A DNA stretch of 63,125 nucleotides, filler included, from Chrysochromulina tobinii (lineage: Eukaryota), in the NCBI GenBank assembly GCA_001275005.1. It is 11 parts of 11 records of this genome, joined end to end, with 100 filler letters (N's around TTAATTAATTAA, not from the genome) between each part and the next. Parts side by side here need not be neighbours in the genome. Positions count along the whole stretch, not along the records: positions 37,038 to 49,081 come from JWZX01000086.1; positions 49,182 to 51,088 come from JWZX01000087.1; positions 51,189 to 54,410 come from JWZX01000088.1; positions 54,511 to 56,826 come from JWZX01000089.1; 7 more parts are not named here. The stretch is one strand, 5' to 3'. Numbering within the stretch: position 1 is the stretch's first letter; each line of letters opens with the position of its first letter. Shown here piece by piece: positions 12,963-56,705 of this stretch. Position numbers and translations under genes: made by a program. The notes beneath the pieces are model-generated. The model worked only from the letters and a program-made list of their open reading frames with translations, searched no databases and had not been told where the DNA came from.

Positions 12963-13013
12963 TGCTCAACCCGGACTTAGTAAGTCCGGGTTGAGCAAAG
13001 TCCGGGTCGAGCA
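12963..13013. repeat. Perfect 17-bp palindrome with a 1-nt centre, plus a third direct copy of the arm
   Basis: tgctcaacccggactta-g-taagtccgggttgagca followed by aagtccgggtcgagca. Confidence 0.85.
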
Positions 13014-13311
13014 AATCTTTTTCCGCGTAGCTGGCTGTGAATTTGCTGTTAACACTCGGCCCCTCGTGTGGTCAATTGGTGGTGTAAGTGAACCGTCTTT
13101 CGCGCTTTGGCTAAGGGGCCGAAGGCAACCGCTGGCTAGAGCTGTACTTTGGACCTCACACTAGAGACTACCATACTATATAGGGGGCGGCGCCGATGTG
13201 CCACCAGGTCCGCGCGTCTCCCAGCCTGACCCCGGATTGTACGCACGCAATTATACTATTAACTGTTGGATAGCTGTAGAACCGGGGTAACTGACTGCCT
13301 GCTTGATGACC

Positions 13312-15419: not shown

Positions 15420-15761
15420 NNNNNNNNNNNNNNNNNNNNNNNNNNNNNNNNNNNNNNNNNNNNTTAATTAATTAANNNNNNNNNNNNNNNNNNNNNNNNN
15501 NNNNNNNNNNNNNNNNNNNTGGCGCGCGGTGGCCATTGGTGACTGCGCGAGCGGATCTGCGCGAGATGTGGATGCGAGAGGATCTGCACGCTGGCTAGAT
15601 CTGAAAGGTCGTCGTCAGGCATCGCGACGACAGGCGCCGAGACCAGGAGGAGCCGAGGACCCAGGCGAGACACCAGGAACCAGCGGACCCCCATCGCGAG
15701 TGGCGATTTCCCCACAGCAAAAAACGTGCGGGGTGGCGGACGATGCTGGCTTCTGAAGTAG

Positions 15762-17479: not shown

Positions 17480-17726
17480 GACGCGGCTCGTGTCATTTGA
17501 ATGCACCTCAAAAGGGAATACCTCAAAAGGGAACACCTCCAAAACTTATGATGATACGCCTTGTCCCCGTGTCCCGTGTGTGTCCCGGCTCCACACACCG
17601 GTGAGCCGCAGCCAGGCTTGAGAGTGGCTTGAGCAGAGTCTATTTTTACCGGTACGCCTTTCGGGTCTCTCGGCTTTCCGACGCGACCCCCTGTGCTGGG
17701 GAGCTTGAGCGCCGAGTTACGTAACG

Positions 17727-35600: not shown

Positions 35601-36937
35601 GCACCCCACACACCACCGCGGCGAGGGCCGGGCGGAAGGGCACTCCGGGTACGCACGCATTGATCTTACGGCGGCGGGCACCGGACGACGTGGCGCGCGG
35701 GGGCGCAACCTGGCACGCCTTCCACTGGCATGACCACAGGTACGTGGTCGTCCACGAGGAGGACATGACGCGTGCCCCGTGGCAAGCCCCGTACCGACAG
35801 CAGGAAAGCACGCTGCAATCGCTGAAGGCTCAGGGGGCACTAGTGACAATAGCACAACGCGTGTACGCCCAAACGGGGGACTGGGGAGGCGAGATCCTCT
35901 CGGCTACAATGGACGCCGCCGCACGGGACGGACTCCACACCGATGCGGGGCAGGCGAGCAGGGCAATCCAAGAGGCGAAACAACGATGGCAAGGGGGACG
36001 GCCATGCGCGCACATGGTCACGCTCAATCACGGGGGTATCCTCGTACGCTTACGCGAGACCACCGCGGCCATCCCCGGGCAGCGACGCATGGCGACGGCG
36101 CCAGCACACGCGGACACCGCCGCGCTGGCGTGGGAAGCAGACGGCAGACTATGGCGCACGATGCACACTCTCGCCGACGGGAACGACGTCGTTCTATTAC
36201 AGGAGACCCACCTCCCGGAGCTCGACCCAGAGGGCCGCAGCGAGCGGGTCATGCAAATGCTCACGAGCGGCGAGTACTCGACGTGGCGCGCGGCGGCGTC
36301 GCCCGCCCCGGTGGACGACGCGTATGCGGGCGTTCTCATGTGGTGGAACACCGCCACAGTAGAGGTAACGGAGATCCAAACACTGACACCTGGACGGCTC
36401 CAGCGCGCGAGGGTCCGCGTCTTAGCGGACGGTACGGATTTCATCGTCGTAAACGCGTACGTCCCCACCAAGCGAGGCGCACCGACCGTCCGCCAAGCGA
36501 CAATTCTCGAACACGTCCGGGCACACATCCAGGCAGCAATCGACACGGCGGACGACGCCGGCGACGAGATCGTCATCGGGGGCGACCTCCAGGCTCAGAC
36601 GTCGGCCACCCTCGAAGCGCGCAAGGACACGGGCAGTGTCAATGCGTACGACTCGTGGCTCGACACACTGTGCGCGGAACACTGCCTCCTGAGCGTCGGC
36701 GATGACGAACCCACCTACAGCGGGGGGGCCGGCGGCCCGCAGACGACTATAGACCACTGGCTCGTCAGCACGGGACTCGCCGACCGGGCAGCGGCGGAAG
36801 TGGGAGCGGGCGCGGACGGGCTCGCGGGACTGGGGGACGGTACGCACGGGCACAACTCCCTACAACTGAGCATTACCCTGCGCACCGCCGAAGCGGAGGA
36901 CGCAGAAGAGAAATGGGAGCAGCGGGAACCGCAACTA
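32647..36937 (+). mobile_element. Non-LTR retrotransposon 5' part: OTU-like protease + APE endonuclease (RT not reached before the contig ends)
   Basis: APE motifs VTLNHGG, VVLLQETH, VVNAYVP, IVIGGDLQ, PTY, TIDHWLVS, GH; OTU-like GHNLNCLAYS...EPDHFSALL. Confidence 0.78.
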
Positions 36938-37874: not shown

Positions 37875-40800
37875 TCACGCCGGCGGCCCCAGGGTCGCAA
37901 GGAAGCTCTGTAGGTCAAACTCCTCCTCATACTGCTCAGCGCTCCACAGCTCGCCCACCGTCTCCAGTAAGTTATGGAGCCCACCGCTGGTGCTGCCGCC
38001 GCCTTCGCCGCCGCCGCCGGCACTAGCGGCCCGAGAGTGCGCCGCGCTCGGCTTCCCGCTCGGCTTCTCACCTGCTCCGGTAGCGCTGGCTGCGTACTCG
38101 GCGAGCATGGCCTCGTCTGGCGTGGTCGCGTCCGCGGGCCGAGCCGGCGCGAGCTCAAACAAGTCGAGCAGCTCGTGCGTGTTCATCGTGGAGAGCGCCG
38201 CGTTCTGTTGGTTGACGACCGTGGCGGCCACGTGCCGTTTGAACGCCTGTGCGCTCATGATCTTTTCCTCGAGCGTGCCGCGCGTCACGAGCCGGTACAC
38301 GTTGACGACGCGCCGCTGCCCAATACGGTGCGCACGGTCCATCGCCTGCGCACCACTCGGTGGCACATCCAGAGGCACATTCAGAGGCACTCAGAGGCAC
38401 TCAGAGGCACTCAGAGGCACTCAAAGGCACTCAGAGGCACTCAGAGGCACTCAGAGGCACTCAGAGGCACACGCCAGGGGAGACGGGAGAGGGCATCGAC
38501 ACACCTGCAGGTCCTTCATCGGGTTCCAGTCGTGGTCGAGGAAGATGACAACGTCGGCACCCGTTAAGGTGAGCCCGAGCCCACCCACCGACGTCGTGAG
38601 CAGCATCAGGTCGATCGACGCGTCGGAGTTGAAACACTCGGCGAGTGCGAACCGGTCGGGCGCGGCTACCTTGCCGTCGAGCCGTAGGTAGGAGACGGTA
38701 GGCATATGTCCCTCGAGCAGCTGGGGGCGAGGTGAGCGCGAGATGAGGGCGAGATGAGGGCGAGATGAGGCGAGATGAGGCGAGATGAGGGCGAGATGAG
38801 GCACTCAGAGGCACGCAGAGGCACTCAGAGGCTGCCGGAGGGCAATCCGATGTTAATCAAAGGGCAATCCGAAGGCAATCCGAAGGCAACCCGAAGGCAA
38901 TCCGAGGGTAATCACCTGAGACTCGACGAGATCAAGTAGAGCACCGCTTTGGCTGAAGATCAGGGCGCGATGCGTCGCGAGAGGCGTGACCGCGCTGCCC
39001 TCCTCCTCCACCTCTAGGGCTACACCCAACCCGTTCTCGTTGTCGCTCCCGCCCTCGCCGCTGTCGCCAAGGGCGCCGCCGCCCTCGCCCTCGCCGCCGC
39101 CTCTGCGGCCGCCGCGCCGTCCGCCGCCCTCGCCGGCAAGGCCGTTGCCACACTCGCGGCCACTCTCGGTGGGCCGCCCGATGCCACACTCATGAAGGAG
39201 TTGCTGGAGCGCCAGCAGCTTGGGCGCGCATGCAAGCGCTGTGAGTCCGCCGCTCGACACCGCGGCAGCCACGCAACGCTCATAGAGGGGATGCGAAGGC
39301 GTGAGGGCGAGCAGCGGGTGGTTACACACACGCCGCAGATATTGGAGTGCGGCGAAGACGTGCGCATGGGCGGCGCCATGGGCGCCGTTGTGAGCGCCGT
39401 GGTGAGTGCCGTGGTGAGCGCTGCCGTGAGCGCCGTGAGCGCCGTCCCCCGCGCTCGCGCTCTCCTCTTGCGCCGCTCGCCCGTGTACCATGCGGACCGC
39501 AGCGTACAGGAGGGCTTGCACTGGATGTAGCTCACACAGTCTGTCCTCGATCACCTGCACTCGGTGTCATATCGCTATCAGACGCAATCCGATTCAATCA
39601 AGTGTCATCAAGTGTCATCAAGTATCATCAAGTGTCATCAAGTGTCATCAAGTGTCATCAAGTGTCATCAAGTGTCATCAAGTGTCATCAAGTGTCATCA
39701 AGGTTCATCAAGGGTCATCAAGGGTCATCAAGGGTCATCAAGTGTCATCAAGTGTCATCAAGTGTCATCAAGTGTCATCAAGGGTCATCAAGGGTCGTCA
39801 AGGGTCATCAAGTGTCATTCAGTGTCATCAAGTGTCATCAAGGGTCATCACCTTGGGCGGCAGCTCGGTGAGCACGGACTCCTTGGTGCGTCGAAGGCAC
39901 AGCGGGAGGACCTGCCGGTGAAGCCGCGCGAGGGCTTCCTCCCCCATCAGCTGCGCCGCCTCGCCCGCGCGCGCTCCTTGCGACGCGTGGATGGGCTGTG
40001 CATACTCGCGCTGAAACGCGAGCTGGGTGCCCAGGTAGCCCGGCATAAGAAAGTCAAACAGTGACCAAAGCTCGAGTGCGTGGTTTTGGAGCGGGGTGCC
40101 CGAGAGGATCAGCCGACGTGCAGCGCGCAGCCGCTTGGCAGCACGCGCAACCTGTGCCTTGGGGTTGCGAATGATGTGTCCTTCATCGAGCACGGCGTAT
40201 TCCCAGCGCACCTGTGGGGAAGGGCAGGGCGCCGTGGTGAGCAAATGCATGCAAGGACTCATCGAGCGCGGCGTATTCCCAGCGCACCTGCACTCAAACG
40301 GCACTCAAGCGGCACTCAGAGAGCAATCAGAGAGCAATCAGAGAGCACTCAGAGAGCAGTCAGAGAGCAATCAGAGAGCAATCAGAGAGCACTCAGAGAG
40401 CACTCAGAGAGCACTCAGAGAGCTGTCAGACCGGGCAGCCGTCCTCTGATCGCCTACCTGTGCCAGCGCGTCGATGTCTGTTCGGAGTGTCTCGTAGGAC
40501 ATCACCACCAGCTCCACCTCATGCACTCGCAAGCGCAGTCGCGCGCGCTGTTGGGCACTTCCCCCATACTCAAGCACACAGAGCCCATCGGAGCCACAGA
40601 ATTTGGTCGCCTCGGCGCGCCAGTGCGCGGTGAGGGTGGCCGGGCAGACGACGATGGAGGGGAGGTTCGCTGGGGGGGAGGTGGCGCCGCCGTTGCCACT
40701 GCTGTCGCTGCCGTTGCCACTGCCGCTGCCGCTGCTGCCGCCACCGCCGCCGCCGCCGCACCCGAGACGCTCGCTCGCGCCCGCGCGTCTCGCTCGTTGC

Positions 40801-43800
40801 TCGTGCGCGGCGGCGGCGAGCACACAGAGCGTCTGCAGCGTCTTGCCAAGCCCCATGTCGTCGCACAGGATGCCATGGAGTCCAAAGCGGCGCAGGAAGG
40901 CGAGCCAATCGACGCCGGCTTGCTGGTAGGGCCGGAGCGTCGTCTTGAGCACCATCGGCAGCTCGTACCGCGGCGGCGCACCGCCCACGACAACGCCCAA
41001 CAGCTGATCCACACAGGGGCGCTCGGCGGCTTTGCGTGCGCGGAGCGCCGCCGACATGTCGATCGGGTCAGCTGTTCCCGGCTCGAGAGGGAGCAGCGGC
41101 ATCAGCTGCCCGAACGCGGCCGAGGCCTCGTGCCGAATGCATGCCGAGCTGTGAGCGAGGCTAGCCACGAGGGGGGTGATCAACAGGGCGGCATACGGCA
41201 GCACACGCGTCTGCAGCGTGCTGATGATCGCGCGCATGCAAAGCGCCGCCCCCAACTGCGTGCCAGGCGGCGCCGTTGGGTGCGCCGCGTGGGGGAGGAG
41301 CTCGAGCAGCGCCTCCATGGCGCCGCAGCCGAGGGCGTCGCAGCACATGGCCACGGCCTGGGCGGCCAGCCGGCGTATGTCGAGCAGCCCTGACGAAGCC
41401 GACGAGGCGGGCGCTGTGGCGGGCGCGCCGTCCGGAGCGCCTTCGCACACCGCCGCCGCCGGCGTCACCGCTGCTGCCTCGCCGCGGCCGTCGGCGACAG
41501 ATCTGGCTCCCTCCTCCTCCTCCTCCCCTTCCACACCTGGCAGCTGAGGCGCCAGCACGACGCGCGCCGTCGCGGGCACGAGGCGCAGCAGCTCGGCCGC
41601 CGCGCCTCCCACGAGGTGTGAACCCACGAGGTGTGAACCCACGAGGTGTGGCGCGAGGGCTCGGAGTATCTCGAGCGCCGAGCGCAGCTGCAGCTCGTCA
41701 TCGAGAGGAGCGCCCTGGAGAGAGGGCTCATGGGTGGCGTCGCGCGGACTCTGAAAGGCCTCAAGAGGCGTCTGAAGCCCCTTCCAAAGCGCGGGAAGCC
41801 GTTCAAAGAGACGATCACCAAACTCGTGGCAGCACGCGCTCAGTGCGGCGCGTGCACCCGTCGCCGCCTGCCTGTCCGCCTCCGCCATCGCTGCCGCCTC
41901 CGCCGCCCCAACCGTCGCGCCATCGGGCCGTCGGCCCACAAGCAGCTTGCACAGATTCGCCACCACCTTGTCTGCGAGCGCGCCCGACACAGCGCCAGCG
42001 CCCGACACAGCGCCCGTGGCCCCTCGGCACGTGTACTGCTTCAAGAGGTTGGCGAGCACCGCGGCAGCACGCGCCTGCACCGCCGGCGGGGCACCCTGGA
42101 CCGCGTTCATGAGCGCCTTGACGATTGGATTGAGCTTCGGCGGCAGTGCGCGGAGGCGTACGATGCCCTCGGCGGCCGCCGCGCCGAGGGTCGTGCACAG
42201 GCTCTCGCGCTGCACCAACACGGCGCGCCTAGCTTCGAGGAGTGCGTCGCGGGCTACCTCACACCGGGCACGCGCACGTGCACTCACGGTGTTGGGCAGC
42301 AGCCCCATCCAATGGGTGTAGATTCGATCGCTCAGAGCGAGGGCCGCCTGCTCGCCCACAGGCGCCCCCGCACCCCCGGGCCAGCTGGCCGACTGGGATG
42401 ACAAAGCACGCAGGGCCTCGGAGGGCGCGCCGGCCGCCTCAAACGCACGCAGCAGCGCGGTGGCGTGCGCCTGCATCTGTGCGAGGGGATGCCTCATCTC
42501 ACGCGCGGTGGCGGCGACCACGGCCGCATCGCTCGCCAGTGAGAGAAGGACCGCACTCAGTGCTGTGAACCCAGTGCTGTGAACGGCACCCAGTGCTGTG
42601 AACCCAGTGATGTGAACCGCGCCAGTTGAATTGTCCATCGCCGCGCCCAAGACAGCGCCCTCGCCTGTCTCGGCGCCCGTCTCGGCGCCCAAAGCCGCTC
42701 GTGCACCCGTCGCGCCGTGGCGCTGCGCCCACTCGGCCACCACCCACGCGCACACCTGCCGCATCGTCGCGGAGGACGTCGAGAGGCCGGTGAGCAAGCT
42801 CGCACGCCACGGGTCGCTGCCCAACAATTCTGACGAAGCAGGCTCACTTTGACGAAGCATGCGCCTGTCCAACGACTGTGACGAAGCATGCTCGCTGCCC
42901 AACAATTCTGACGAAGCAGGCTCAGGCATGGCGGCCGCCTCGCACGCGGCGGCGATTGCACCCAGTGCCGCAGCCCCTCGCGCGTGCATCCCACTCGAGG
43001 CCACTCGAAGTTCAAATGGAAGGGGCTCGCACGCGTCGTGATGGGCATTCTCGTCGTCGTCCAGCGCCACGCCGCCGACAGCGCCGCCGCCCCCGTCCCC
43101 GTTGCCGTCGTTGCTCTTCGCGTTGCGACGCGCAGAGCCAGCGGCCCCACGCCCCCCTGTGCGCATCGTACCGGTGGCCGCCGCGGCGGCGCTGCCATTG
43201 GGGGCAAATGGCGGCCGGTGCAGCCCTCGCAGATGGATAGGCTGGCTTAACGGAGTGCCGAGCATCGCCAGCCAGTCGCCGATGTGAGGCGCGGCGGCCG
43301 CACGCAGCTGGCGCGCGGGTACGACGCGCACCACGGCCGCAAGGGCCGCTTCGGCCGCTGCGTGCACCGATGTGCTCTCATCCAGCAGCGCGGCCTGCAC
43401 GAGCAGCTGCAGCGCTGGACCGAGCTCGCCCGTGTCCTCGGTACCCGCGCCATCTGTGGCGCCGCCGCCGCGGGCACATAGCCACTCTGGCGCGCTCGCG
43501 GCCGGCGCCGCCGGCGCGGCCTGCGCGGCCGCATTGAGCAGAGCTTCGAGCGTGCGAATGGCCGCCGCGCGCGCCGTCGCCGACGGGTGGCGCCAAAAGG
43601 GCCATAGGCGAGGGACAACGGTCGCAAGGCTCGAGGCACCGCCTCCGCCGCCCTTGCCTCCGCCTTTGCCTTCGCCTCCGCCTTTGCCTTCGCCTTCGCC
43701 TTCGCCTTCGTCCTCTCCAAAGGTGGCGAGGGCACTGTAGGGCAAGCAGGCGCAGTAGGCAGAGAGCGTCGTCATCACGTGCGCCGCGGAGGACGTGAGC

Positions 43801-45399
43801 TCATCAAGCTCGAGGAGCACGTCCCAGAGCGCGCCCAGCACGGCACCCAGCGCGCCCGGCGAGAGCAGCGTGCCGACGCGTGCCGCTACGCCCCCCGAGA
43901 GCCTCGGCAGCGACGCAACGCACGTCGTCGTCGTGGTCGCCCGCGAGGGCGGCTCGGAGCGCTTCCGCTGCCTGCGGCAAGAGCGTTGGTAGCAAGTCGG
44001 TGCGCACAGCGAGCAAGTATTTGAGCCCGAGCATTGCGGCGTGACGAACCTCCCACGTCGGCTGACGCGCCATCACCAGCAGCGCTTGCGCCACTTGCGC
44101 CGCCGCGGCCGCTGTCATCGGCTGGAGCAGCACCGCGAGCGCTTGCGCTGCCGTCTCGCGAACGGGTGCGACGACCTTATCACCAGCGGCCCAATCCCCA
44201 AACCGATCGAGAGAGAGTACACAGATGAGCCGGAGGGCGCAGTCCTGCAGCCACTGCGCACGCAGCTCGTCGCGCACCCGTGCGGACACGCCCCCCACCG
44301 CACCCGCCGTGGCCGCATGCGCGCGCAACACGGCGCGCAGCCCCAGCGCAGCGCCGTGTCGGCGCTGCCAACGTGGCTGGAAGAGTGAGCAGCGCAGCTC
44401 AGCACACAGCGGCTCGAATGGCCACTGGTCGCACCTCTCCCACGCCGTCGCATCGTCCAAAGCCGCCACCGCATCGCCCGCCGGATCATCCCCTGACGCA
44501 GCTTGGACGGCAGCCAGTTCAGCTCCCGCCGCTTCGCCTTCGTCGTCGGCAGCCGCGGCCGCGACCGGCGGGCAGCCGGCCGACCCGTCCGAGGCTGTTG
44601 CGCATGGCGCTGGTGCTGCCGCTGGCTCGAGCCGCCGCGCGCGCTTCGCCATCGGCAGCTGCACGACCACGCCATCGGCGCCGCCATCTGTGGCCAGCTT
44701 GGCCGCCCGACGCGCTTTGCGCTTGAGCGTGTTGCGAGCACGCTCTGAGAGAGCACCACCGCTGGCCGCGAGCTCCTCAGCGATCAGGCGTGCGGCGGCC
44801 AACTGATGCGCGTCCGCTGCCGCCGCCCGGTGCGAAGCTGCGGCGGCGCGCCCAGCGCCGAGCACGTCGTCCTCCTTGATGAGGTCCATCATCTCGCGCT
44901 GCTCGCGCCCGCCGATGGCGCTTCCGATGGCGTCGAGGCCGAGCTGCTCCTGCAGGAGCGCCCTCTGGCGGAGCAGGCGCTCGTGCGGCCGGTCGTCCGC
45001 CGCGTCGTTGGCCTCGAACTCCTGCCCACCACTCGCCAGCAGTGGTGCTCCATGGGCCAGCACGCGGTCGATGGCAAAGCTCTCAAAGCTCAACCACGCA
45101 CCGGATGCCTCGTCGCGTGCTGCCGCCTCGACCTCGGCCGACGCCGCGTCCGGATGGCTGGGCTGCCACGTCGTCACCGCCTCGGCGATCTCCTCGAGCG
45201 CATGCGCGGCCGCTCTGCGCGTCTCCCACTCCTCGTGGAAGAGGTAGCACAGCACGCGTTGGAGCAGCGCGTGGAGCTGCTCCGGGTGCTCACGCTGGAT
45301 GGCACCGAGCTGTCGGCCCGCCGCGAGGCGCGCCGCCTCGCTCGGACCGGTGCGCAGCAAGCCCAGCAGGCGGTCAAGGCGACTTGGCCGTGCCATCAT
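37875..45399 (-). CDS. BTAF1: TATA-binding protein-associated SNF2 ATPase BTAF1/Mot1; introns 40212-40457, 39555-39851, 38721-38915, 38346-38504; apparent +1 frameshift at the C6 run 43891-43896
   Basis: SRLDRLL N-terminus; LSLDRFGD..VAPVRETAAQ; LRPYQ; GILCDDMGLGKTLQ; LDEGH; LSGTPLQN; YLRLDG; GGLGLTLTGAD; DWNPMKDLQ|AMDRAHRIGQ; EQYEEEF. Confidence 0.95.
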
Positions 45400-45512
45400 C
45401 GTCCCGTGCTGTGAACGGTGAAGTCTGTGAACTGTGGCTGTTAATACTCGGACGCCTACCACCTGCCAGGCTCTCGTTTGGAGTTTCACTCATCATCCTA
45501 TAAATCACCCGC

Positions 45513-46280
45513 TCAACCCGACTCGGTCGAGCCTTTCAGACGCTTGAAGATGGACTTGCTGATATCGCCGAATCTGTACTCATCCTTGCCTGTGACGCGC
45601 TTGACGGCGCCCTTGGTCAGATCGCCAAACTTGTATTCGTCGCTCCCAGTCACCTTCCGCACGGTGGCCTCTGTCAAGTCACCAAATTTATACTCGTCCT
45701 TGCCCGTATAATCCTTGACCGAGTCGGCAATGCCTTGCGAAGCCCGCTCGCTCAGTCGCACGCCGACCTCTTTGACGGCCCGCACGCCTAGCTCAGCCTT
45801 GAGCACCGTTCCGTACGTGGCCAAGAGGACCGCCACTGGCATGGCGGCAAGTCCTGCCACAGGTGCCGCGGCGCCGGCGCCGAGGAAAACTCCGACCTTG
45901 AGCAGTAAGGAGAGGTCCGCCATAGTCCACTCTGCTGACATCTGCCGCTGGACTTCGGAGCGCATGCTCTCAACGACGCTTTTGGTGATGTCGCCGAACT
46001 GGTAACCCTCGTTCTCGGCGGTGACCCGTTCCTCGACGCGCGCAAGCAGTGTGGGCAGCCGCTCCTCCTGCTCCTCCGGAGTGCTGATTGCAAGCTCGGC
46101 CAGCTCTTCTCTGACAATTGCATCGAGCGCATCTGCGCGTGCGTCTGCGCGCAGCGTCCGCACTCGCAGATGCATACCCCGTGGCTGCCTCAGCCGGCCA
46201 ACTGCATGGCCGCAGCTCTGCCCTTGCACAAGTGCTGCAATGGCCACCGTCGCCGCGAGCAAGATCGAAATGGCTCTCAT
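45513..46280 (-). CDS. Hypothetical signal-peptide (possibly plastid-targeted) protein with YxFGDxT repeats
   Basis: MRAISILLAATVAIAAL; YQFGDITK, YKFGDLTE, YKFGDLTK, YRFGDISK. Confidence 0.7.
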   Translation of the reverse strand: MRAISILLAATVAIAALVQGQSCGHAVGRLRQPRGMHLRVRTLRADARADALDAIVREELAELAISTPEEQEERLPTLLARVEERVTAENEGYQFGDITKSVVESMRSEVQRQMSAEWTMADLSLLLKVGVFLGAGAAAPVAGLAAMPVAVLLATYGTVLKAELGVRAVKEVGVRLSERASQGIADSVKDYTGKDEYKFGDLTEATVRKVTGSDEYKFGDLTKGAVKRVTGKDEYRFGDISKSIFKRLKGSTESG

Positions 46281-46561
46281 TGTAAATTCGGGCTGTGAAG
46301 ATCTCCTCCGTCCAAAGTTCACGCTGCCGTTAATCGGCGGCATGGCGGGGGAAGGAGTAACCCTTCCCCCTAACGTAGCCCGATAGTACCGATGGTTCAC
46401 GTATTTGCCAACACGGCAGGGCGCACATCCACAGGACCCGAACACTCCAACACGAACCGACCTTGCAGCCTTAAAGTGTGCTGAATCCGCGCGTGTCCTA
46501 ACATACTATTGTAGTAACTATGCTTGATTGCTTGTCACGTGCTGAGTTCTCAATATGGGTC

Positions 46562-49081
46562 CTATCTCATAGTCTGAGCTATGATGTTATGGATGGGCGT
46601 GTAATTGCCCGCTCGTCCGAGGCCAAGCTCACCGATGGCTGTGACCTTCCACGTGTGCCCTGGTGCGGTGCGCCAGATCTTGGCCATCACAACCGCCGTC
46701 TGCTCCCCCGTGGGCCGCCCGTCCAGCTCGTAGCGCGCGAGAGGCACCCCCGATCTGTCGGCCGGATCAAAGCAGCGCACCTCCGGTCGGATGATGTCGG
46801 AGAGTCGGGCAGTATCCCACGCAGAGAGTGTCAGGTAGATGGCGCCAACTTGGTCGCTGAGGGCGCGCAGGTCAATGTCGACCCTGTGTGTGCCCTCGCG
46901 CTTCTCCGCGTCGATCTGGTCACCAGAATGGCGCAGTGCCACGCCCCTCCCCCCCTCGCCGTACGCCGTGTGCACGCCGCCGGAGACCAATCCCGTCGCC
47001 GATCGCTGGTTGTCGTAGTCGACGTAGGCGAGCGGCTTGCCGTCGAAGCTGTACGCGAGCGCCGACGCGTCGAGGTAGAGCGTTCCCTCACCCGCCCAGC
47101 GCCACACCTCCTCGAACCGGACCGCCTTCATCGTGGGCGAGGCAGTGACGGACTCGCCCCTGCGCAGGATGGCCGAGACGCCGCTGCGCTGGACACGCGA
47201 AAAGTCCATCCCTTTCTTGTGATAGCCCTTCTGCTCTGAACGGCCAACGGCGCGGATGAACCACGCGTGAATGTAAGCCTTCGACGGGAGCGGCACGTTG
47301 ATGAGCGCGTAGAACTCGGGCCACGAATCAGCGGCCATCACCTTCGCAATGTGCTGACGCATCGAATGACGAAGCCACGGTGTCGGGTTCCCATTGAAGT
47401 CATCGAGCTGCGCTGGCGACACCTTGGAAAGGCGGGACAGGAAGCCGACAGAGAACATGAGCAGTCGGTTCGAGACGCGCCGCGCCTCCCAGCAACGCTG
47501 CACGAGCTCATCCACCCCGAGCGTGTGCGGAGTGGCCAGCTCGGGGTGATGGCGGCAAGCCCAGAGAACCGAACGGTCCATCATCTCCTCGAGCAACGGC
47601 CACGCGAGGTCGCTCCAGCGCAGGCTGTTGCAGATGGCGAGCAGCGGCACGAGATCGCCCAGGCTCGGCTCGGACGCCTTGCCGCGCTTGCTTTCCTTGC
47701 CGATGAACTCCTGCACGCGCTTGGTCACCTGTGCTCGTAGCGCCGGGTGCTCGTGCGCGAGCGCGAGCAGAAGCCGATAAATCTGCGTGAAGCCGTTGAT
47801 GAAGACGTCGGAGGCTGCGACGCCCCGGTCGACGAGAAGCACGACGAGCGTGCACAGTAGCTTCGGCAGCACATCGAGTGCCATCTCGGGCACAAAGCGG
47901 CCCTGGGCGAAGCGCCACCGTGGCGCGTTAGCGCACAGGGCAGCGATCGTCTGGTGCAAGATGGGCCTCGCCGCCTTGAAGTGGTCACGCGTGAGGTAGA
48001 GCGGCAGGAAGTGGGTGAAGGCCTCGCCCCATACGCTCGTGCGCACACCATCTTCCCTGAAGGCCGAGTACGAGAGCGTGTCGAGTGTCGAATAGATACA
48101 GTCCACTTCGTGCGTGCGCGGGTTGACGGTGAACGTGAGCGGGATGCCGAAGACCTGTGGGGAGGAGCAATGGCGCCGTGGTGAGCACTTGCATGCGAGT
48201 CGGAGGTCCATATATGAGGTTCGAGGGATGCCAAAGACCTCGAGCCCTCCGCGCTTCTCGTCGAGCGCGCCCAGCGTCGCCTTGCTGTGGTAGCAGCGGA
48301 GTAGCTCGGCGTTGCTGCTGTGCTCGAGCATGTATGCGTGGCGCCAGTCGCTGAGCGAGGCCGCAGCTAACTGGGACGCTGGGAAGTGCCGGTGGAAGAG
48401 CACGCGCCACAGCAGGCCGTCACTGCATGCGCTGCGCAGGTGAGAGCACGTGCACGCGAGCGAGCGCACGTCTGCCTCGGAGTGCAGCTTCTCTATGACG
48501 ATGATGAGCGCGTCGTACGACAGCAGCGCAAAGGATCCCGAGCACTCATCTGCCGTCTCCTCATGTGCCTCAGGGTCGGCACATACCAAATTAGGGTCGT
48601 CACAGCCCCTCTGCTCGGCAATCGAGGCCGTTGGCTTTGCAGTGGCAACGGTGACGACTGCGGCGGAGGCGGCGGCAGTCTGGGCGGCGTCAGCCACGCC
48701 CAAGCCGCCGCGCTCGCGCTCGCGTTTGCGCGCGCGGTAAGCATTCTTCTTCTGCGTCCGCTTGCTTGGGCCAGTCTTTTCAGACGTGCCCTCATCGTCA
48801 GCTGCAGCACTCTCTTCCTCATCATCTGCATCGCTCTGCTCGTCTCCCTCGACGCTGAGCACGGCAAACTTGCCCTTCAGCGCCTGCGGTTTGGGCGGCG
48901 CTAAGGCGAGCGACGGCTTTGGCGGCGGCGCTGCGGCAAGAAATTGCTTTGGCGGCGGCGCTGCGGCAAGCAATTGCTTTGGCGGCGGCGCTGCGGCAAG
49001 CAATTGCTTTGGCGGCGGCGCTGCGGCAAGCAATTGCTTTGGCGGCGGCGCTGCGGCAAGCAATTGCTTTGGCGGCGGCGC
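46562..49081 (-). CDS. F-box + uncharacterised domain + C-terminal TerD-like domain protein, 5'-partial; in-frame intron 48155-48238
   Basis: F-box LSYDALIIVIEKL..SLACTC..LW; TerD-like YLDASAL..VDY..LRHSGD..IDLRAL..WKVTAIG; 30-bp QLLAAAPPPK repeat. Confidence 0.75.
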   Translation of the reverse strand, partial: APPPKQLLAAAPPPKQLLAAAPPPKQLLAAAPPPKQLLAAAPPPKQFLAAAPPPKPSLALAPPKPQALKGKFAVLSVEGDEQSDADDEEESAAADDEGTSEKTGPSKRTQKKNAYRARKRERERGGLGVADAAQTAAASAAVVTVATAKPTASIAEQRGCDDPNLVCADPEAHEETADECSGSFALLSYDALIIVIEKLHSEADVRSLACTCSHLRSACSDGLLWRVLFHRHFPASQLAAASLSDWRHAYMLEHSSNAELLRCYHSKATLGALDEKRGGLEVFGIPRTSYMDLRLACKCSPRRHCSSPQVFGIPLTFTVNPRTHEVDCIYSTLDTLSYSAFREDGVRTSVWGEAFTHFLPLYLTRDHFKAARPILHQTIAALCANAPRWRFAQGRFVPEMALDVLPKLLCTLVVLLVDRGVAASDVFINGFTQIYRLLLALAHEHPALRAQVTKRVQEFIGKESKRGKASEPSLGDLVPLLAICNSLRWSDLAWPLLEEMMDRSVLWACRHHPELATPHTLGVDELVQRCWEARRVSNRLLMFSVGFLSRLSKVSPAQLDDFNGNPTPWLRHSMRQHIAKVMAADSWPEFYALINVPLPSKAYIHAWFIRAVGRSEQKGYHKKGMDFSRVQRSGVSAILRRGESVTASPTMKAVRFEEVWRWAGEGTLYLDASALAYSFDGKPLAYVDYDNQRSATGLVSGGVHTAYGEGGRGVALRHSGDQIDAEKREGTHRVDIDLRALSDQVGAIYLTLSAWDTARLSDIIRPEVRCFDPADRSGVPLARYELDGRPTGEQTAVVMAKIWRTAPGHTWKVTAIGELGLGRAGNYTPIHNIIAQTMR

Positions 49082-49181
49082 NNNNNNNNNNNNNNNNNNN
49101 NNNNNNNNNNNNNNNNNNNNNNNNNTTAATTAATTAANNNNNNNNNNNNNNNNNNNNNNNNNNNNNNNNNNNNNNNNNNNN

Positions 49182-51088
49182 AACGTGCAGACGTACAGCC
49201 TCCTCAGGTACGATGTCCAGAGCATGCAGGTGGCCGGGGTGATGAGATGCACGAACCTGTGGTGCTCGATCATGGGCCGCTTCTCGCAGATGAACATGAG
49301 CGGCAGCAGCTCCTACTTAGAGGCGACGCACATCTTCTTGGAAGGCAGCGACCTGAACATGCAGGGCAGCAGCAGGCTCGATGCCTCGGCGCGCGGCTTT
49401 GCCCAGCTCAATGGCACCGGAGCCGGCGCCGAGCCGTCGGATGGTTACGGCGGCGGCAGCGGCGGCGGGCATGGCGGCACCGGCGGCACCGGCCACGGCG
49501 GAAACGCCGGGGGCGTCGCGTACGGCGTGATCGAGCAGCCCGTCACCGCCGGCAGTGGCGGCGGGCGTGGAAGGTATCCGAGCTACTTGACCTACGTGCC
49601 AACCGTCGGCACGTGGGCGGCTGGGCGTGCAGCGTGCCAGTCTCTCGGCGGTGATCTCGCAAGCATACACAGTGCCGCGGAGAACGACGCTGTGAGGGCC
49701 GTCGTCCCTCACACCACCGCCGCCTGGATCGGTGCGACTGATGCGGTGAGCGAGGGCACCTGGAGGTGGTCCGATGGCACTCCGTGGGACTACTCCAGCT
49801 GGCACCCTGGTGAGCCCAACAACCAGGGCGACGAGGATTGTGGCGAAGCATATGCGGACCATCCAGGCTGGAACGATATGCCTTGTTCAAGGGACCTTGG
49901 TGCCGTGTGCCGGTTGCCTGCTGCGGCTGCCGTCCACTTCCGCGACGGCGGCGCAGGCGGAGGCACCGTGCGCATCGACGTGCGCGGCACGCTGACCTTG
50001 GCGCCATCGGCTTCGGTTCGTGCCAACGGCGCACAGGGCGCCGACTCAGGCATCAGCTGCCAGTCCAGATGCCTCGACAACGCGTACAACGGAGGTGGCG
50101 GTGCAGCGGCTGGCTCGATATGGATCACCGCCGAAAGCGTGCTCGGCAACGGCTCTCTGCAGGCGACGGGCGGGGCCGGAGGCGCAGCGGGCGCACGTAG
50201 CGGCTCGTGGCAGAACGCTGGAGGCGGCGGGGCTGGCGGACGTATCGCTGTGCACTGCGCGTCGCAGCTCGCAAGCGGCATTTCAATGAGCGCAGTCGGC
50301 GGCCAGAGGGGGTCGAACGACGCGGGCAGTGAGGGTGTGGGTGCGCCTGGGACCATCTTCACGTCTGTGGGTGGCGTTCGCACGCTTGTGGTGGACAACG
50401 CGGCGACGAGCTCGTCGCTGGTCGGCGGCTACGTGCGACTGCCTGCGAACGGCAACGGCAGCCTTGCTCTGCACACACTTAGGCTCGTGAACAGCAAGGT
50501 CGATGTGCACTACAGCGTGAACGCGGCGCACGTGATTGGCTTGTCGTCTGACGTGACTACGCGCTTGCTCGATGCTACCTCGCTGTCGACAAGCTCGTGC
50601 ACATGGCTGGCGCACTCGCGCGTCGCAACTGTGACGATGCAGCTCCTAAATACAGTTTGGACGAGCGCGGCGCCGATCGCAGCGTCGAGCACGCTCAAGA
50701 TCAACGGATCGACCACGCTCACGATCAACGCATCCGTCGGTCGCATCGAGGCCGGCACGTTGTTGGTCGAGACCGGCGCCATCCTGACGACGTCATCGAT
50801 ATCTGACGGTGTGCTCGATGTGGTGGCCGGCACAATGCGTGTGCAGGGCACCGGCGCCGTGAGGTCAGGTGCGCTGCACGTCAATGCGTCCAGCTGGTCG
50901 GTCGAGGCGTCTGAGTCGAACGTGCAGACGTACAGCCTCCTCAGGTACGATGTCCAGAGCATGCAGGTGGCCGGGGTGATGAGATGCACGAACCTGTGGT
51001 GCTCGATCATGGGCCGCTTCTCGCAGATGAACATGAGCGGCAGCAGCTCCTACTTAGAGGCGACGCACATCTTCTTGGAAGGCAGCGA
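49182..51088 (+). CDS. Internal fragment of a large Gly-rich repeat surface protein with a C-type lectin domain
   Basis: GGGHGG/GSGGG/GGAGGG repeats; CTLD W..ACQSLGGDLASIHS..WIG..W.WSDG..WHPGEPNN..EDC..WND.PC; 170-nt identical ends 1737 nt apart. Confidence 0.85.
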
Positions 51089-51294
51089 NNNNNNNNNNNN
51101 NNNNNNNNNNNNNNNNNNNNNNNNNNNNNNNNTTAATTAATTAANNNNNNNNNNNNNNNNNNNNNNNNNNNNNNNNNNNNNNNNNNNNTATAGTACTCGT
51201 GAGGGGCATCTGTATCTTACCACTGTTCCTCTTATCCACACTGATCCTCAATGTACCGCCCGTTACGCTGTGGGCCGCGCTCATGGGTCGATTC

Positions 51295-51560
51295 ACTGCT
51301 CTCGACTAAGGAGAGGCTTACCGTACTGCTCTCGACTAAGGAGAGGCTCACTGACTTTGTACTGCTCTCGACTGATGAGAGACTTGTGCTGCTCTCTACG
51401 GGTGAGAGGCTTTGGTTTGCATGCTGCAACGCGCTCGGCTCGTGAGAGCGTGCGCCGTCGTCGGCCCCTCGACTAGTGAGGGGCCGGTTGGGCTGCGGTG
51501 TGCTTCCGACTAAGGGAAGCGCACCGGCTTACTGGCCTGTTCTTCGCCTACTGAGAGGCT
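51295..51560. repeat. Array of short stem-loops with 7-nt loops (GACTAAG-like)
   Basis: ctctc-gactaag-gagag x2, ctctc-gactgat-gagag, ctctc-tacgggt-gagag, ggcccctc-gactagt-gaggggcc, cggtgtgcttcc-gactaag-ggaagcgcaccg. Confidence 0.8.
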
Positions 51561-51789
51561 CATGCTGCGTACTTGTTACGAGCTGCTCGGCACACTTGGT
51601 GCTTTGCCGGGCTGCAGGCAGAGGGATCGCAAGCGATCGCCTACCTGAGCCCTCTCGGCCTGGCTGCTGTGCTGTGCTTGGCTTGCGCTGAGGCCCGAGG
51701 GCGCTGCAGCGGGTGCTGGGCGGGGCTGGCTCTGGCGGGCGGCGCGGCGGCTCTGTGCCGCTGGCCTCGTAGCCGTAATCGTCTGCACT

Positions 51790-54410
51790 TCAGGGGGAGT
51801 GCCCGTAGTCGCTGTCCACGCCATCGAGGAGGCCAGACTCGTAGTGTACTCGAGTCATTTCGAGTTGCTCTCTGCGCGTGAACTCGATATGGCCTACTTG
51901 TGCGGGCGCGGGCTCTGCATCGTTGGCGGCTTCGGCATCTGGTGCGTCATCGCCGTCCGTGCCGGGCCCTTCGGCCCAGTCCATGGCGGCTAGCTCTTCG
52001 ATGGTGTGCGCCGACGCCAGTCTCTGGATGTCTTTCGACACTCGGACGGCCATGCGTGCGTCCCTTGCAAAGGCGGTGCTCTGTGCGTATCTGTCCGGCA
52101 GGACCGCACATTTGAGCCTGTGTTTCTTGAGCTCTGCTGGTTCTGGGACTAGCGTGGCGCTCTGCGCGGCGCTGCCGGAGAAACGCCCGAGGCCGTGCCG
52201 CTCGATCGGCCCGAGAAGCATGCGTGCGGCGTGCTTGAGCATCATGGGCTTGAGCGAGTGGACCTTGAACTCGAGTAGCGACGGCGGCTTGCACGCGAGC
52301 GGCGGGAGCGACAGCAGAAACTGTAGCGCCGCGTCGGCCCGTCCGCCGAGGATGGGGCCGTTGGTGAAGGCGCAGCCTTCGACAGGTGCGCCGGAGGCCG
52401 AGTCGTTGTCACGGACGAGGAAGCAGCCGTCTTCGACGTCGCGGAGCGCGTCATAGACCTCGTCGATGACGCCGCGCGAGCCGTAGGCGTCGAGGATAGG
52501 CCCGAAGGCCGGGCGCGGCGACTGCTTGTGCGGCTCATTGGACTTGTCCACCTGAACGCACGTGTAGAGCACGCCGTTCTTTTCGGCCAGGATGGCGCAC
52601 GCCTGCGCTTGTTTGAACCTCGACGTCTGCGAAGCCACGAGCGCGAAGCCGGCGGCGGTGCCGCGCACGACGCGGCTGTGGTGGTGCGTGGCGAGGTAGC
52701 AGAGCTGAGCGTAATGTGGTGGCTCAAGCGCCGGCGTCGGGATGGAGGTTGTTGTACCAAACTTGCGCTTGCAGACGAGTGCGTCGTCTGCCGCCGTGGC
52801 CATCTTGACGTTGTCGAGCAGCCAGCGCAGGGAACGGAAGGCGGTTTTGGCGGCTGTGCGCCCGTCGCGCCTCTGCTGCTGCGCTGTGAGCACTCTGCCT
52901 TCGGCCTCGGCCTTATCTCTGTACGCTTTGGCGGCGTCGACGGCCTTGACGTTGACCTCGTCGAGGAAGCTGTTAGTGAGCTGCGCCGGGTACGTGTCGT
53001 TGTCGGCTGCATCGTACTCTCCCTTTGCTTCGGCGTATGCCCGGAGGCGCGTCAGCGTGGAGAGGGCGCCTTTGAGCGTGGACGTGCCCCATCGGGCGAG
53101 GAACGTCACGAGCTCGTCGGCGCAGTTCACGCTGTAGGGCTCGTCGTCGTGGAGCCGCATGGCCGTCTTGATGAGGTCTCTCCCCCAAATGCCGGCAATC
53201 GTCTGCAGCGAGAGGGCTGAGGCGAGCTGGCATGCGGCCCGAGTCCTGTTCGCCTGGTCTCTCATCTTGCCAGTAATGAGGGGCCCGCCTTTTTTATTTC
53301 TGCCCAACTGAGCCGGCATGAGTAGCTGCACCGCTTCGCTGATGGCGCAGCTGGCCTTGGCCCAGGCGACGTAGCGGCCGTCGCCTTGAAGCGCTGCCTC
53401 CATGGGTACTGCGACGCCGATGGGCTGGTATTGCTCGAGGCCGCTGTGCTGGCCGGTGGGCACCACGAGAGCCCGTTGCTGTGCGGCATGCGTGCTGGGC
53501 TGTTCGGCGAGGTGCTGTTGGTGCAGCAGGTACGTCGCCGAGGCTGGGATGGTGTCGCGTGCCGTATTGGCAGCGATGTAGAGGCGGTTTCGGCTAGGTA
53601 GTGCTGGCTTTCTCGGCTGCTTGTCGCGGATCGTGTTCCACACGTAGTGACCCTCGGGGTAGGACAGCAGCGCTCGCCGTACTTCTTCTTGCTCTCCTGC
53701 GATGGCACGAGCGACCTGCTCGGCTCTCGCTTTGAGCTCTTCCGCCTGGTTCGACTCGCGCAGCCCTTGCATGATGTGCTGGAGCCGCGAGCCGGGCATG
53801 CCGACGCTGGAGTCGGATCTGGTGTTGTGGAGGCGGCTCTGCTGCTGCACTCCGAATGGCACCAGCTGGCCGCCCATCCCGTGCGACGGCTCCACGGGAG
53901 TCGTAGTCGCAGCAGGCGGAGGGCCCGGGGGGTTGCAGAACATGCTGCGCTCGAGCGCCGACGATGGCCACTCCGACGAGGCGCTAGAGCTGCCCGGCTG
54001 GTAGCCACGCTGGCCGGGCTGCGGCGTGTCGTCCCAGATGTTGTGCCACGCGCCTGCGCCGCTGGGGTCGATGGTGCCATCGAGGTCCCCATATGGGGTG
54101 AACACCCTGATAAGGCGGCCGACCGGGGTCGGCTGCTGCGCGGGTGGCGCTGCGCTCGGGCGTTCGTCATCGTGGGTATCGCGCGGCGCGATGCCGCTGA
54201 TCGGCTGCGCGCTCTCGCTGGCGCTTCCGCCCTCGCTCCCTGCTGAGGGGGCGATTGATTCATCTTCTGCAGCTTGCGCGTGCGCGTCGGAGATGTGCTC
54301 GTCGCCCGCTAGAGTTTCGACCTGGGCACCGACGGCAGGGTCACCTGCTCGTGGTGGGCCGGCTTGTACTCCAGAATCGCGACCCCGCTTCTGTGCTCCG
54401 CGGCGCGTCT
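51790..54410 (-). mobile_element. Tyrosine recombinase ORF of a DIRS/Ngaro/Crypton-like element, 5'-partial
   Basis: Ordered catalytic-like motifs TSRFKQAQ (R), VDKS (K), VHSLK (HxxK/R), RHGLGRF, DRYA (Y). The frame is open to the contig edge. Confidence 0.72.
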
Positions 54411-54949
54411 NNNNNNNNNNNNNNNNNNNNNNNNNNNNNNNNNNNNNNNNNNNNTTAATTAATTAANNNNNNNNNNNNNNNNNNNNNNNNNNNNNNNNNN
54501 NNNNNNNNNNCTCGACGGGCGCGGCAGCGGCGGCGCCGCGAGCTCCACCATGTAGCTTGGAGATACTCGAGCCCTCTGGCGAGAGGGTCGTGAGCTTAGT
54601 GGCGGTGATGATGTGGCACGCCTCAAGGAAGCCATTGTTGGCCTGCATGGTGCACGGCCTTGGGCTGCGACGCAAGTTTCGTTGATCTCACGCGGTCTCT
54701 GCACTATGTGCGCGAACATTTCTTTCGTGTTGACGTGTACTGTGTGAGGCTTCATGTGCCGATGGACTCAATTCGCGCCGTGTCGGTTGATAAGATTGCA
54801 AAGCGCGCGAGGTTTCCGACTCAAAACCGGCCGACCGGTGTACAGCGCAGCGCAGCGCGCCTCTGCATCATGGCGCACACCGAATATGGTGAGCTGCCCC
54901 TTTGCAAGGGTGAGTGCCCATTTGAATGCCCTTCCTGATTGCCCACCTC

Positions 54950-55616
54950 CCAGATAACCGCCGCGCTCGCCTCCGCCTCTCTTGCCGCCACCGTCTCCGC
55001 CGCCATCATCACAACCGCCTCCTTCGCAACCGCCTTCTCCACCACCTTCACCCTCTCCGCCGTCGCCTCCTCCGCCATCGCCGCCACCACCATCACCGCC
55101 TCCGCCCTCGCCTCAGCCTCAATCTCCTTCGCCGCCATCACCACAACCGCCTCCGTCGCCTCCACCGCCGTCACCGCCTCATCCACCACCGCCTCCGCCC
55201 TCGCCTCCGCCTCCATCTCCTCCGCCGCCATCAACACAACCGCCTCCGTCGCCTCCGCCGCTGTCACCGCCTCATCCACTGCCTCCTCCCCCACTGCCTT
55301 CTCGACCGCCTCCACTGCCACCACCGCCCTCACCGCCTCCTCCATCGCCGCCACCACCACCTCGTCCGCCACAGCCATCGCCTCCTCCATCGCCGCCTCC
55401 TCCTCCATCGCCGCCTCCTCCTCCATCGCCGCATCCTCCTCCATCGCCGCATCCTCCTCCATCGCTGCTGCCGCTGCCACCACCGCCGCCAGCGCCAGCG
55501 CCTCCGCCCCCACCGCCCCCGCCCCCGCCGTCGCCACCGCCGCCTTCACCACCACCACCTTCACCACCACCACCACCGTCAACGCCACCAACGCCATCCC
55601 CCCAGCCGCCATCGCC
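54950..55616 (+). repeat. Ser-Pro(n) low-complexity tract
   Basis: CCx-rich repeats translating to SPPPP; no convincing start. Confidence 0.6.
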
Positions 55617-55618
55617 CG

Positions 55619-56705
55619 TGATCGTGATACGCGAGCACGCAGGCAATCAAGCTCGTCCAAAGACCGAGCGCTCATCACTCAGACGCAGTCAGACTCAGTC
55701 AGACTCAATCGGACTCAGTCGGACTCAATCAACTCAACGGTGGTGCTCGTGATCGTGATACGCGAGCATGCAGGCAATCAAGCTCGTCCGAAGACCGAGC
55801 GCTCATCACTCAGCACTCAGACGCGGTCAGACGGTCTCGTAATTCGCTCAGACTCAATCAGACGCAGTCAGACGGTCTCGTAATCGCCTCAGGCGCGGGA
55901 GGAGGGTAGTCGCGGGGGAGGGGGTGAGGGAGCGGAGTGGCGGGCGGGCCGCGTCAGTGGAGCCCTCGTACCTGTGGGGAGAGGGCGCGCCGTAGTGAGG
56001 ACTTGCATTCGAGCCGTCCATCATCAGACGCAATCAGACGCAATCAGACGCAATCAGACTCGGCAATGGCCGAGGCGGCGATGGCTGAGGTGGCGATGGC
56101 GGCCGAGTTGGCGATGGCGGTCGAGATGGCAGTGGTGACGCCGGGGGTGTGGGGGGGCGGAGGAGGCGATGGCGGAGGCGGTGATGGTGGTGGATTTGGG
56201 GGTTGTAAACGTGGCGGAGGCGATGTCTGTGGGGGTGACGGCGGAGGCAGTGACGGTGGAGGCGGTGATGTCAGAGGCAGTGATGACCGTGGAGAAGGCG
56301 GTGAGGGCGAAGTCGTCAGCGGCAGAAGTGACAGCGGTGGCAGCACCACCGTTGAGTTGATTGCGTCCGATTGAGTCCGATTGAGTCTGACTGAGTCTGA
56401 CTGCGTCTGAGTGATGAGCGCTCGGTCTTCGGACGAGCTTGATTGCCTGCGTGCTCGCGTATCACGATCACGAGCACCACTGTTGAGTTGATTGCGTCTG
56501 ACTGAGTCCGATTGAGTCTGACTGAGTCTGACTGCGTCTGAGTGCTGAGTGATGAGCGCTCGGTCTCCGGACGAGCTCGATTGCCTGCGTGCTCACGTAT
56601 CACGATCACGAGCACCACCGTTGAGTTGATTGCGTCTGACTGAGTCTGACTGAGTCTGATTGAGTCCTGATTGCTGAGTTGATGAGCGCTCGGTCTCCAG
56701 CTCGA
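55619..56705. repeat. ~130-bp unit containing CAGACTCAGT 10-mers; about 2 copies forward and 3 inverted
   Basis: gtgatcgtgatacgcgagc..gaccgagcgctcatcactcag..caactcaacggtggtgctc at 55619 and 55749; reverse complements at about 56345-56705. Confidence 0.75.

Follow-up and report, generated by a model that had tools for sequence, protein, structure and literature searches.

Introns composed of a shared acceptor cassette and a long duplication of the downstream exon start at hundreds of loci in a freshwater haptophyte alga

We found a family of introns in which the 3′ half, together with its acceptor, is shared at hundreds of loci and the 5′ half repeats the beginning of the exon that follows. 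The origin of new spliceosomal introns is a long-standing question, and the known mass gains of introns are mostly credited to transposons with fixed ends. The results presented here make it likely that existing introns are the templates for new ones, and the template is probably RNA; for the complete account, in which a staggered DNA break receives a copy of the 3′ part of an intron already present, probably by way of its excised RNA, our confidence is evenly balanced.

The window, which is the whole stretch of Chrysochromulina tobinii DNA that was analyzed (63,125 nucleotides, filler included), consists of contigs joined by N spacers. Inspection of the window sequence located all three minus-strand cassette strings; the contig at 37038-49081 is home to both the BTAF1 and the F-box/TerD genes, and the third cassette lies on the contig at 54511-56826. 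The pattern CTCACYACGGCGC-N6..14-CCCCACAGGT matched three times in the window versus zero times in 100 dinucleotide shuffles, which upholds the earlier claim of shared cassettes at three unrelated loci. A relaxed search of the whole window with the 24-nt core, allowing up to four mismatches, recovered only the same three cassettes. The features are as follows.

40212..40457, minus strand: phase-0 intron of 246 nt in the BTAF1/MOT1-like SNF2 gene, from the RNA joint and the open frame
40259..40287, minus strand: copy, within the intron, of the beginning of the downstream exon (29 nt counted from the GT, with one mismatch), directly behind the old acceptor
40183..40211, minus strand: exonic copy of the duplicated target in BTAF1, from sequence comparison
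40212..40258, minus strand: family-1 acceptor cassette of BTAF1, with the core, a CTCAC branch-like motif, a pyrimidine tract and CCCCACAG
48155..48238, minus strand: phase-0 intron of 84 nt in the F-box/TerD gene, made up of duplication, linker and cassette, with an RNA joint
48225..48238, minus strand: intronic copy of the exon start in the F-box gene, 14 nt counted from the GT with one mismatch, which supplies the donor
48141..48154, minus strand: exonic copy of the duplicated target in the F-box gene, from sequence comparison
48201..48224, minus strand: linker common to the unrelated locus L007 (73-nt match between L001 and L007 at 86%)
48155..48200, minus strand: family-1 acceptor cassette of the F-box gene, from string and pattern match
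55972..56013, minus strand: third family-1 cassette, with 3 mismatches in the 24 core positions, followed by GT

The BTAF1/MOT1-like protein was recognized by Pfam DUF3535 and SNF2. RNA contigs from X13 and X16 skip 246 nt (40457-40212) in this gene, the reading frame is open once these nucleotides are removed, and the RNA joint revealed that the AG of the cassette is the acceptor actually used. In order, the intron contains an older donor, whose GT is at 40457, a stretch of 11-nt tandem repeats, an old acceptor at 40290-40288, the duplication and the cassette. The preliminary description had implied an intron of 76 nt at this position; that boundary was misplaced, and the shorter intron was ruled out by stops in all frames after its removal and by the RNA joints. 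When the CAG/AG before the GT is counted, the duplication is 32 nt long with one mismatch (40290-40259 vs 40214-40183). In BTAF1, an older acceptor was already in place when the duplication and the cassette were added downstream of it, and its AG is now either bypassed or used recursively.

In the F-box/TerD gene, one bridging RNA contig from X16 skips 84 nt (48238-48155), and loose ends bearing the junction were present in RNA contigs of X13, X9, X14 and X7. A contig of X14 covers the interior of the intron, reflecting either retention or DNA, and a DNA contig of X12 runs unbroken across it. Since the intron is a multiple of three in length and has no stop inside, the evidence for splicing is the RNA and the gap-free homologue alignment rather than the frame; the spliced protein showed 100% identity over 752 aa to C. 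tobinii KOO53746.1. Splicing was accordingly confirmed by RNA joints at two window sites, F-box (84 nt) and BTAF1 (246 nt). Counted with the CAG/AG before the GT, the F-box duplication is 16 nt long with one mismatch (48240-48225 vs 48156-48141), and both window duplications are as they had been described. From its sequence we infer that the linker at 48201-48224 may be a relic of a parent intron held in common with L007. Three to four CTGAT repeats of 10 nt stand in front of the third cassette, and flank comparison revealed no duplication of its downstream start; it is a putative intron end.

A metagenome scan with the exact pattern returned at least 142 loci and at least 166 matches, of which 159 had enough flank, at no fewer than 142 distinct sites; the copy number is large, not few. 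Because the core and the AG end are set by the scan pattern itself, the conservation of both is partly by construction; core positions outside the pattern were also well conserved. Duplications were called by comparing the 90 nt before the core with the first 60 nt after the AG, using the 99th percentile as the cut-off and swapped exons as the control. Among the matches listed, a duplication above the cut-off was found in 107 of 142 distinct sites, versus 9 of 141 in a shifted-exon control, and 89 of the 107 begin exactly at exon position +1. The match started within 6 nt at 99 of the listed sites, where the introns were 57-112 nt long (median 78), a range that is partly by construction because the search reached no farther than 90 nt before the core. 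At these 99 listed sites, the duplication was 13-60 nt long (median 31) and the non-duplicated remainder 31-85 nt (median 46); the intron started with GT in 85 and GC in 8, and the preceding base was G in 82.

Also among the matches listed, the duplicate pairs differed at 176 of 3031 positions (5.8%), and 22 of 99 were perfect. The base directly after the AG was G at 138 of 142 listed sites, and GT[AG]CG followed 44 of 150 listed cassettes versus a background of 0.33%. The 142 listed copies contained 127 different pyrimidine tracts although the duplicate pairs differ by only 5.8%, which argues against a single master. The cassette of about 45 nt was therefore confirmed as shared, but not as a single fixed sequence.

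Coding potential was assessed with a model trained on seven window ORFs, after 28 of 97 sites with cassette-bearing flanks had been dropped. Among the matches listed, the best coding signal was on the cassette strand at 57 of 69 clean sites. Where both flanks were sense (44 listed sites), 43 were in frame after removal of the intron and 11 when left unspliced; intron phases 0, 1 and 2 occurred 29, 10 and 18 times among the matches listed. A relaxed core search of the listed loci found 244 copies, against zero in shuffled sequence. Where a contig group among these loci has several copies, they lie on one strand in 45 of 48 cases. The same site was recaptured in different assemblies in 16 of 12,813 pairs, which suggests roughly 800 exact-pattern sites, a rough figure that assumes one species and equal sampling. 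Viral contigs gave no scan-pattern match and one core match, located at a contig end.

As a separate observation, the summed contig depth over the cassette was about 11,000-18,000, versus about 47 in X12; this value is not a copy number, and it fits hundreds of copies.

Presence/absence variation was found at one site, which is filled in L093 and empty in L009 and L041, as the preliminary description had proposed to look for. The 81-nt insertion in L093 comprises a perfect 33-nt duplication starting with GTGAGT plus 48 nt, and outside it the identity between the loci is 98.4% over 1015 nt; the difference is either a gain in L093 or a loss in L009/L041. Independent assemblies were identical at shared sites. 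These results bear on the view that the introns are old and merely carry a strong species-specific splice signal, or that they are an assembly artefact. The scan pattern does include genuine splice signals, as that view would have it, but the 24-nt core had no match in shuffles, 22 of the 99 listed duplications are identical, and the empty allele, the agreement of independent assemblies and the RNA joints all speak against it. The empty site and the duplications refute this reading, which we consider to have virtually no chance of being correct. The earlier picture of a family that is spliced and recently active, brings its own acceptor, lacks TIRs and obtains its donor through a duplication of long and variable length was supported.

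The ancestry of individual copies could be followed in several cases. The 48 nt of L093 recur exactly in a neighboring intron 470 nt away and at no other listed locus. L126 consists of its own 14-nt duplication followed by the whole L060 intron from GT to AG, including the duplicate of the L060 exon; the copy stops at the L060 donor, and L060 and L126 are alike in the intron alone. L011 is a full-length intron copy that begins with the exon start of L012, approximately 1.2 kb away in one gene; its insertion site is not a GT, and no long duplication accompanies it. The host gene of L011 and L012 is, from our reading of the sequence, presumably FtsH-like. Further linker-sharing pairs were L001/L007, L003/L087, L073/L111 and L074/L080. 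All of these pairs were picked by ranking and inspection, and only L126 and L011 are full-length cases. In bulk, linkers matched the exon starts of other sites 137 times versus 133 in the control, which is no excess. Strictly local (cis) spread as a general rule was rejected, as neighboring cassettes were no more alike than others (permutation 647/1000; 170 vs 15,188 pairs); rare core words were shared by 21 of 170 neighbor and 628 of 15,188 distant pairs, tandem copies included. Taken together, L093, L126, L011, the shared-linker pairs and the diversity of pyrimidine tracts indicate, at the level of sequence, that many templates rather than one master would have been used. The 5′ part appears to be inherited from individual parent introns.

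A second cassette family, made of 10-nt CTGAT repeats ending in CCCTCATCAG, was found at 39 distinct sites among the listed loci. Twelve of these sites exceeded a repeat-inflated control, with seven beginning at +1, and the second family lay on the family-1 strand in 32 of 36 cases, again among the listed loci. At L108 and L137, both families are present at the same junction. Because the second cassette has an unrelated tail but the same build and sites, the process appears to act on introns and not on one element. Among the listed loci, 22 core copies without an acceptor were found inside introns, where they are free of the constraint of splicing, 13 of them with a flanking duplication; many are simple tandem duplications of a resident intron copy. 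The AG end is thus usual, as had been claimed, but not absolute. In L024, L053 and L128, the cassettes are truncated at the 3′ end and the duplication spans or adjoins the donor, and two antisense copies were present among the listed loci (L083 and L136). The window itself contains 19 direct-repeat pairs, most of them coding or satellite repeats, and duplications with local non-cassette filler, for example at 11017, 28797, 42814 and 51295. Because of the acceptor-less and antisense copies and the local-filler duplications, the exact junction between AG and GT must come at least partly from selection.

The same observations could be explained by the repair of breaks on a DNA template, without any mobile machinery, in which short synthesis primed by microhomology would take place on nearby or ectopic DNA (polymerase-theta type). 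Introns ending in AG before GT(G/A)CG would then be the best donors at donor-like breaks, with selection retaining the spliceable products. The local non-cassette fillers and the acceptor-less and antisense copies are in keeping with this explanation, as are the location of two of three parent-daughter pairs in the same gene and the junction microhomologies of 2-3 nt in such pairs. However, the likeness of L060 and L126 in the intron alone means that copying works in trans, the non-cassette fillers are few where random donors predict a large excess, neighbors are not more alike than distant copies by the permutation described above, and parent and daughter have only 0-3 nt in common after the AG. 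We regard break repair of this kind as fairly unlikely.

Searches for the hallmarks of a mobile element gave largely negative results. Among the 99 listed copies, inspection revealed no TIRs, and the 5′ ends were locus-specific; there was no 3′ tail, the target directly following the AG. Five window sequences had fold z-scores of -0.72 to +0.71 and no compensatory changes, and five loci had no Rfam match at the gathering level. A conserved hairpin around the branch motif was unsupported; only the L093 intron beat shuffles (z -2.43). An APE-bearing ORF of the window (33689-36937) is cut short by the end of its contig. Its relatives carry APE or RNase H, but no RT match was obtained with its two longer relatives, and it was set aside as a reverse transcriptase source.

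A non-autonomous transposon moved by a dedicated core-recognizing enzyme, either Replitron-1-like (HUH) or SINE-like (target-primed reverse transcription), was weighed against these results. Replitron-1/N1 of Chlamydomonas reinhardtii has the closest published insertion signature, with the same four features of one fixed end, an oriented target, a far end derived from the parent flank and a variable duplication (PMC10288648), all of which were found here, the parent-derived far end in three pairs. One Replitron locus is reported in C. tobinii (PMC10288648), the core is conserved at positions outside the scan pattern, and the APE-type endonuclease ORF at the contig end has one longer relative with RNase H. 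In contrast to the cassettes, which have no terminal direct repeats or hairpin, Replitron-1/N1 elements are 0.9-3.6 kb long with both of these features (PMC10288648). Replitron-1/N1 are also under-represented in coding sequence and introns (PMC9977147), and we found no report of their creating introns in the literature searched. Non-LTR retrotransposition (SINEs, Dualen, Chlamys PLEs) likewise gives a fixed 3′ junction, 5′ truncation and a long variable duplication, and this combination of variable duplication and 5′ truncation was seen here, but the poly(A) or repeat tail was absent; unlike non-LTR elements, the cassettes lack a tail and seem to have neither a master copy nor, in the five loci compared with Rfam, an RNA-gene head, and their templates appear to be individual introns. 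The transposon explanation is further weakened by the absence of a second conserved end in the 99 listed copies on inspection, of a significant fold, compensatory changes or an Rfam family in the sequences searched, and of a detected reverse transcriptase domain in the APE relatives. Moreover, nearly all copies are sense and genic, and two unrelated cassettes behave alike. A MITE-type element fits poorly as well, with no TIRs and duplications of 13-60 nt (median 31 among the matches listed) rather than a fixed 3-9 bp. Overall, we consider a transposon unlikely.

The exact junction at the AG raises the question of partial reverse splicing by the spliceosome, in which the 3′-OH of the excised intron would attack donor-like DNA, followed by a downstream cut of the opposite strand, reverse transcription and end joining. 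The target is donor-like (GT[AG]CG, as counted above among the matches listed), and existing junctions were hit again, as in BTAF1 and at 5 of 95 listed family-1 sites, which lie directly behind another acceptor. The 3′-OH of lariats is active after splicing (PMC11146597), and linear group II retrohoming yields an exact 3′ junction and a truncated, end-joined 5′ junction (PMC3280974). However, group II introns use a ribozyme and their own RT, and their homing loses the overhang, the 3′ exon being rarely duplicated (PMC3280974). The acceptor-less and antisense copies and the full-length L011 copy at a non-GT target also stand against this route, and the donor-like target is explained by selection. 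Whole, precise and duplication-free insertion of an intron is seen in L011 alone; the majority of copies are truncated and carry long duplications. We find partial reverse splicing very improbable.

In non-LTR elements, a fixed junction, a long variable duplication and a truncated far end reflect primed copying into a staggered break (PMC9977147). Under the templated-copying account that we prefer, the target would be opened by two nicks approximately 13-60 nt apart, and the end of the future downstream exon would prime copying from the 3′ end of an intron, usually at the terminal AG and sometimes internally via short microhomology. Copying, by a LINE/PLE reverse transcriptase or a repair polymerase, would mostly end after about 45 nt and occasionally reach the 5′ splice site of the parent, and end joining and fill-in would leave the target duplication. 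The only survivors in exons would be products with an AG end and a donor-like GT starting the duplicate. New introns could then serve as templates themselves, the branch-acceptor half being inherited and the 5′ half renewed each generation. An RNA template is favored because copies are mostly sense and end at the AG, because the two full-length ones are delimited by the splice sites of the parent, and because copying works in trans, whereas the antisense copies, truncated copies and local fillers favor DNA; in particular, the acceptor-less tandem-type copies and the local-filler duplications of the window fit DNA-level repair. As the copies run through the branch motif, an RNA template would need to be debranched or unspliced, and since the end of the L011 copy at GT is explicable by selection alone, this copy is weaker as support for RNA. 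That the process amounts to a self-propagating intron cycle without a transposon, in which excised introns are templated into staggered breaks and the donor half comes anew from the host exon, is a serious but somewhat doubtful possibility.

The family works like an acceptor-carrying introner, yet it departs from known introners in its ends, TIRs and duplication length. To count as introners, four or more similar introns must occur at unrelated loci (Gozashti et al. 2022), and here at least 142 sites were found; splicing restores the mRNA, from the RNA joints at two sites and the frame consistency at 43 of 44 listed sites, and presence/absence variation was seen at the L093 site. Similarity within 10 intronic bases of both ends, by contrast, was lacking, as the 5′ 13-60 nt are locus-specific. 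As in introners of Symbiodinium and Polarella glacialis (classes 4/5 and 6/8/10) and Aureococcus, the element gives the 3′ site, the 5′ site is the start of the duplication and the mRNA is exactly restored (PMC9860276; bioRxiv 10.1101/2020.10.14.339549). Those introners have fixed 4- or 8-nt duplications, an intron-wide family sequence and, in Symbiodinium, TIRs, whereas the duplicate here measures 13-60 nt, approximately 40% of the intron length, and each locus has a 5′ end of its own. The introners described in marine Chrysochromulina sp. MAGs share the genus label, the lack of TIRs and the short introns, but, compared by description, they are the mirror image, with a 4-bp duplication, a carried 5′ site and a co-opted 3′ site (PMC9860276). 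For fungal and Micromonas introner-like elements without TSD/TIR and Hypoxylaceae sister (stw)introns, spread via intron RNA, through reverse splicing or break repair, has been proposed (PMC8469720); these are whole-intron, seamless insertions without duplication, in contrast to the mostly half-intron copies with long duplications found here. We found no account of this family in the literature searched, which included few subscription papers.

Introner duplications are given as 3-9 bp in PMC9860276, and its pipeline demands similarity at both intron ends. A survey that includes non-LTR-derived introners scored zero families in C. tobinii (PMC12130899). The comparison with published catalogues that had been proposed could be made, with an outcome opposite to the at least 142 sites reported here: a likely route of intron birth was scored absent from this species by a published survey.

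Pipelines that demand similarity at both ends thus have a blind spot and overlook half-shared intron families, as illustrated by the zero listed for C. tobinii. Hundreds of introns here carry a record of their own ancestry: each has a duplication that can be dated, and some retain part of the parent, so that a single genome is enough to draw parent-daughter trees and the idea of an RNA template is open to direct test. If the templated origin is true, introns would beget introns genome-wide in a culturable freshwater haptophyte alga, without a transposon, and such families, which would escape end-to-end similarity searches, may be common elsewhere.

A second acceptor cassette was found, composed of 10-nt CTGAT repeats with a terminal CCCTCATCAG, and its architecture matched that of family 1 (the ~45-nt acceptor cassette), in that the 5' part of the intron copied the start of the downstream exon. 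This cassette was present in the metagenome loci L002, L007, L012, L015, L023, L033, L053, L076, L100, L108 and L137 as well as in the window, and is probably about as abundant as family 1.

20701-20716, plus strand: CTGAT-repeat cassette
39382-39437, 39597-39850, 38370-38470 and 16842-17014: tandem-repeat tracts

These four tracts, the first of which included 12-nt repeats of the core motif, are probably additional introns of these families. Units consisting of a duplication plus a cassette also occurred in head-to-tail arrays of up to five units (L039, L018/L054, L052, L075 and L127), which created AG|GT sites with zero-length exons; the number of units differed between L018 and L054.

Further features were present in the window.

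33689-36937, plus strand: long ORF that extends into a contig gap and has an APE-type endonuclease domain close to its end
42814-42924: identical 33-nt direct repeats flanking 45 nt of filler of local origin, in frame in an exon of BTAF1 (SNF2 gene)
55614-56666: inverted arrays built of repeats of 131-138 nt (97% over 143 nt)

The ORF is likely a non-LTR retrotransposon fragment; a 3688-aa relative carries RNase H. The inverted arrays surround the third family-1 cassette of the window and GGC/GCC-rich tracts.

RNA contigs from several runs diverged from the window at 44912-45099 and 46350-46395, with long loose ends and a common 1-nt deletion at 45014, which may reflect a repeat, a paralogue or an assembly difference. 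In the viral collection, a contig of 4.6 kb carried a single family-1 cassette at its end (L143:601-660) and may be host DNA.

At L016, L038, L053, L079 and L107, hybrid introns were found in which the family-1 core immediately followed CTGAT repeats, and the third window cassette (55972..56013) was of this type, its CTGAT repeats running into the core. These hybrids suggest that the CTGAT-repeat family and family 1 are related or recombining.
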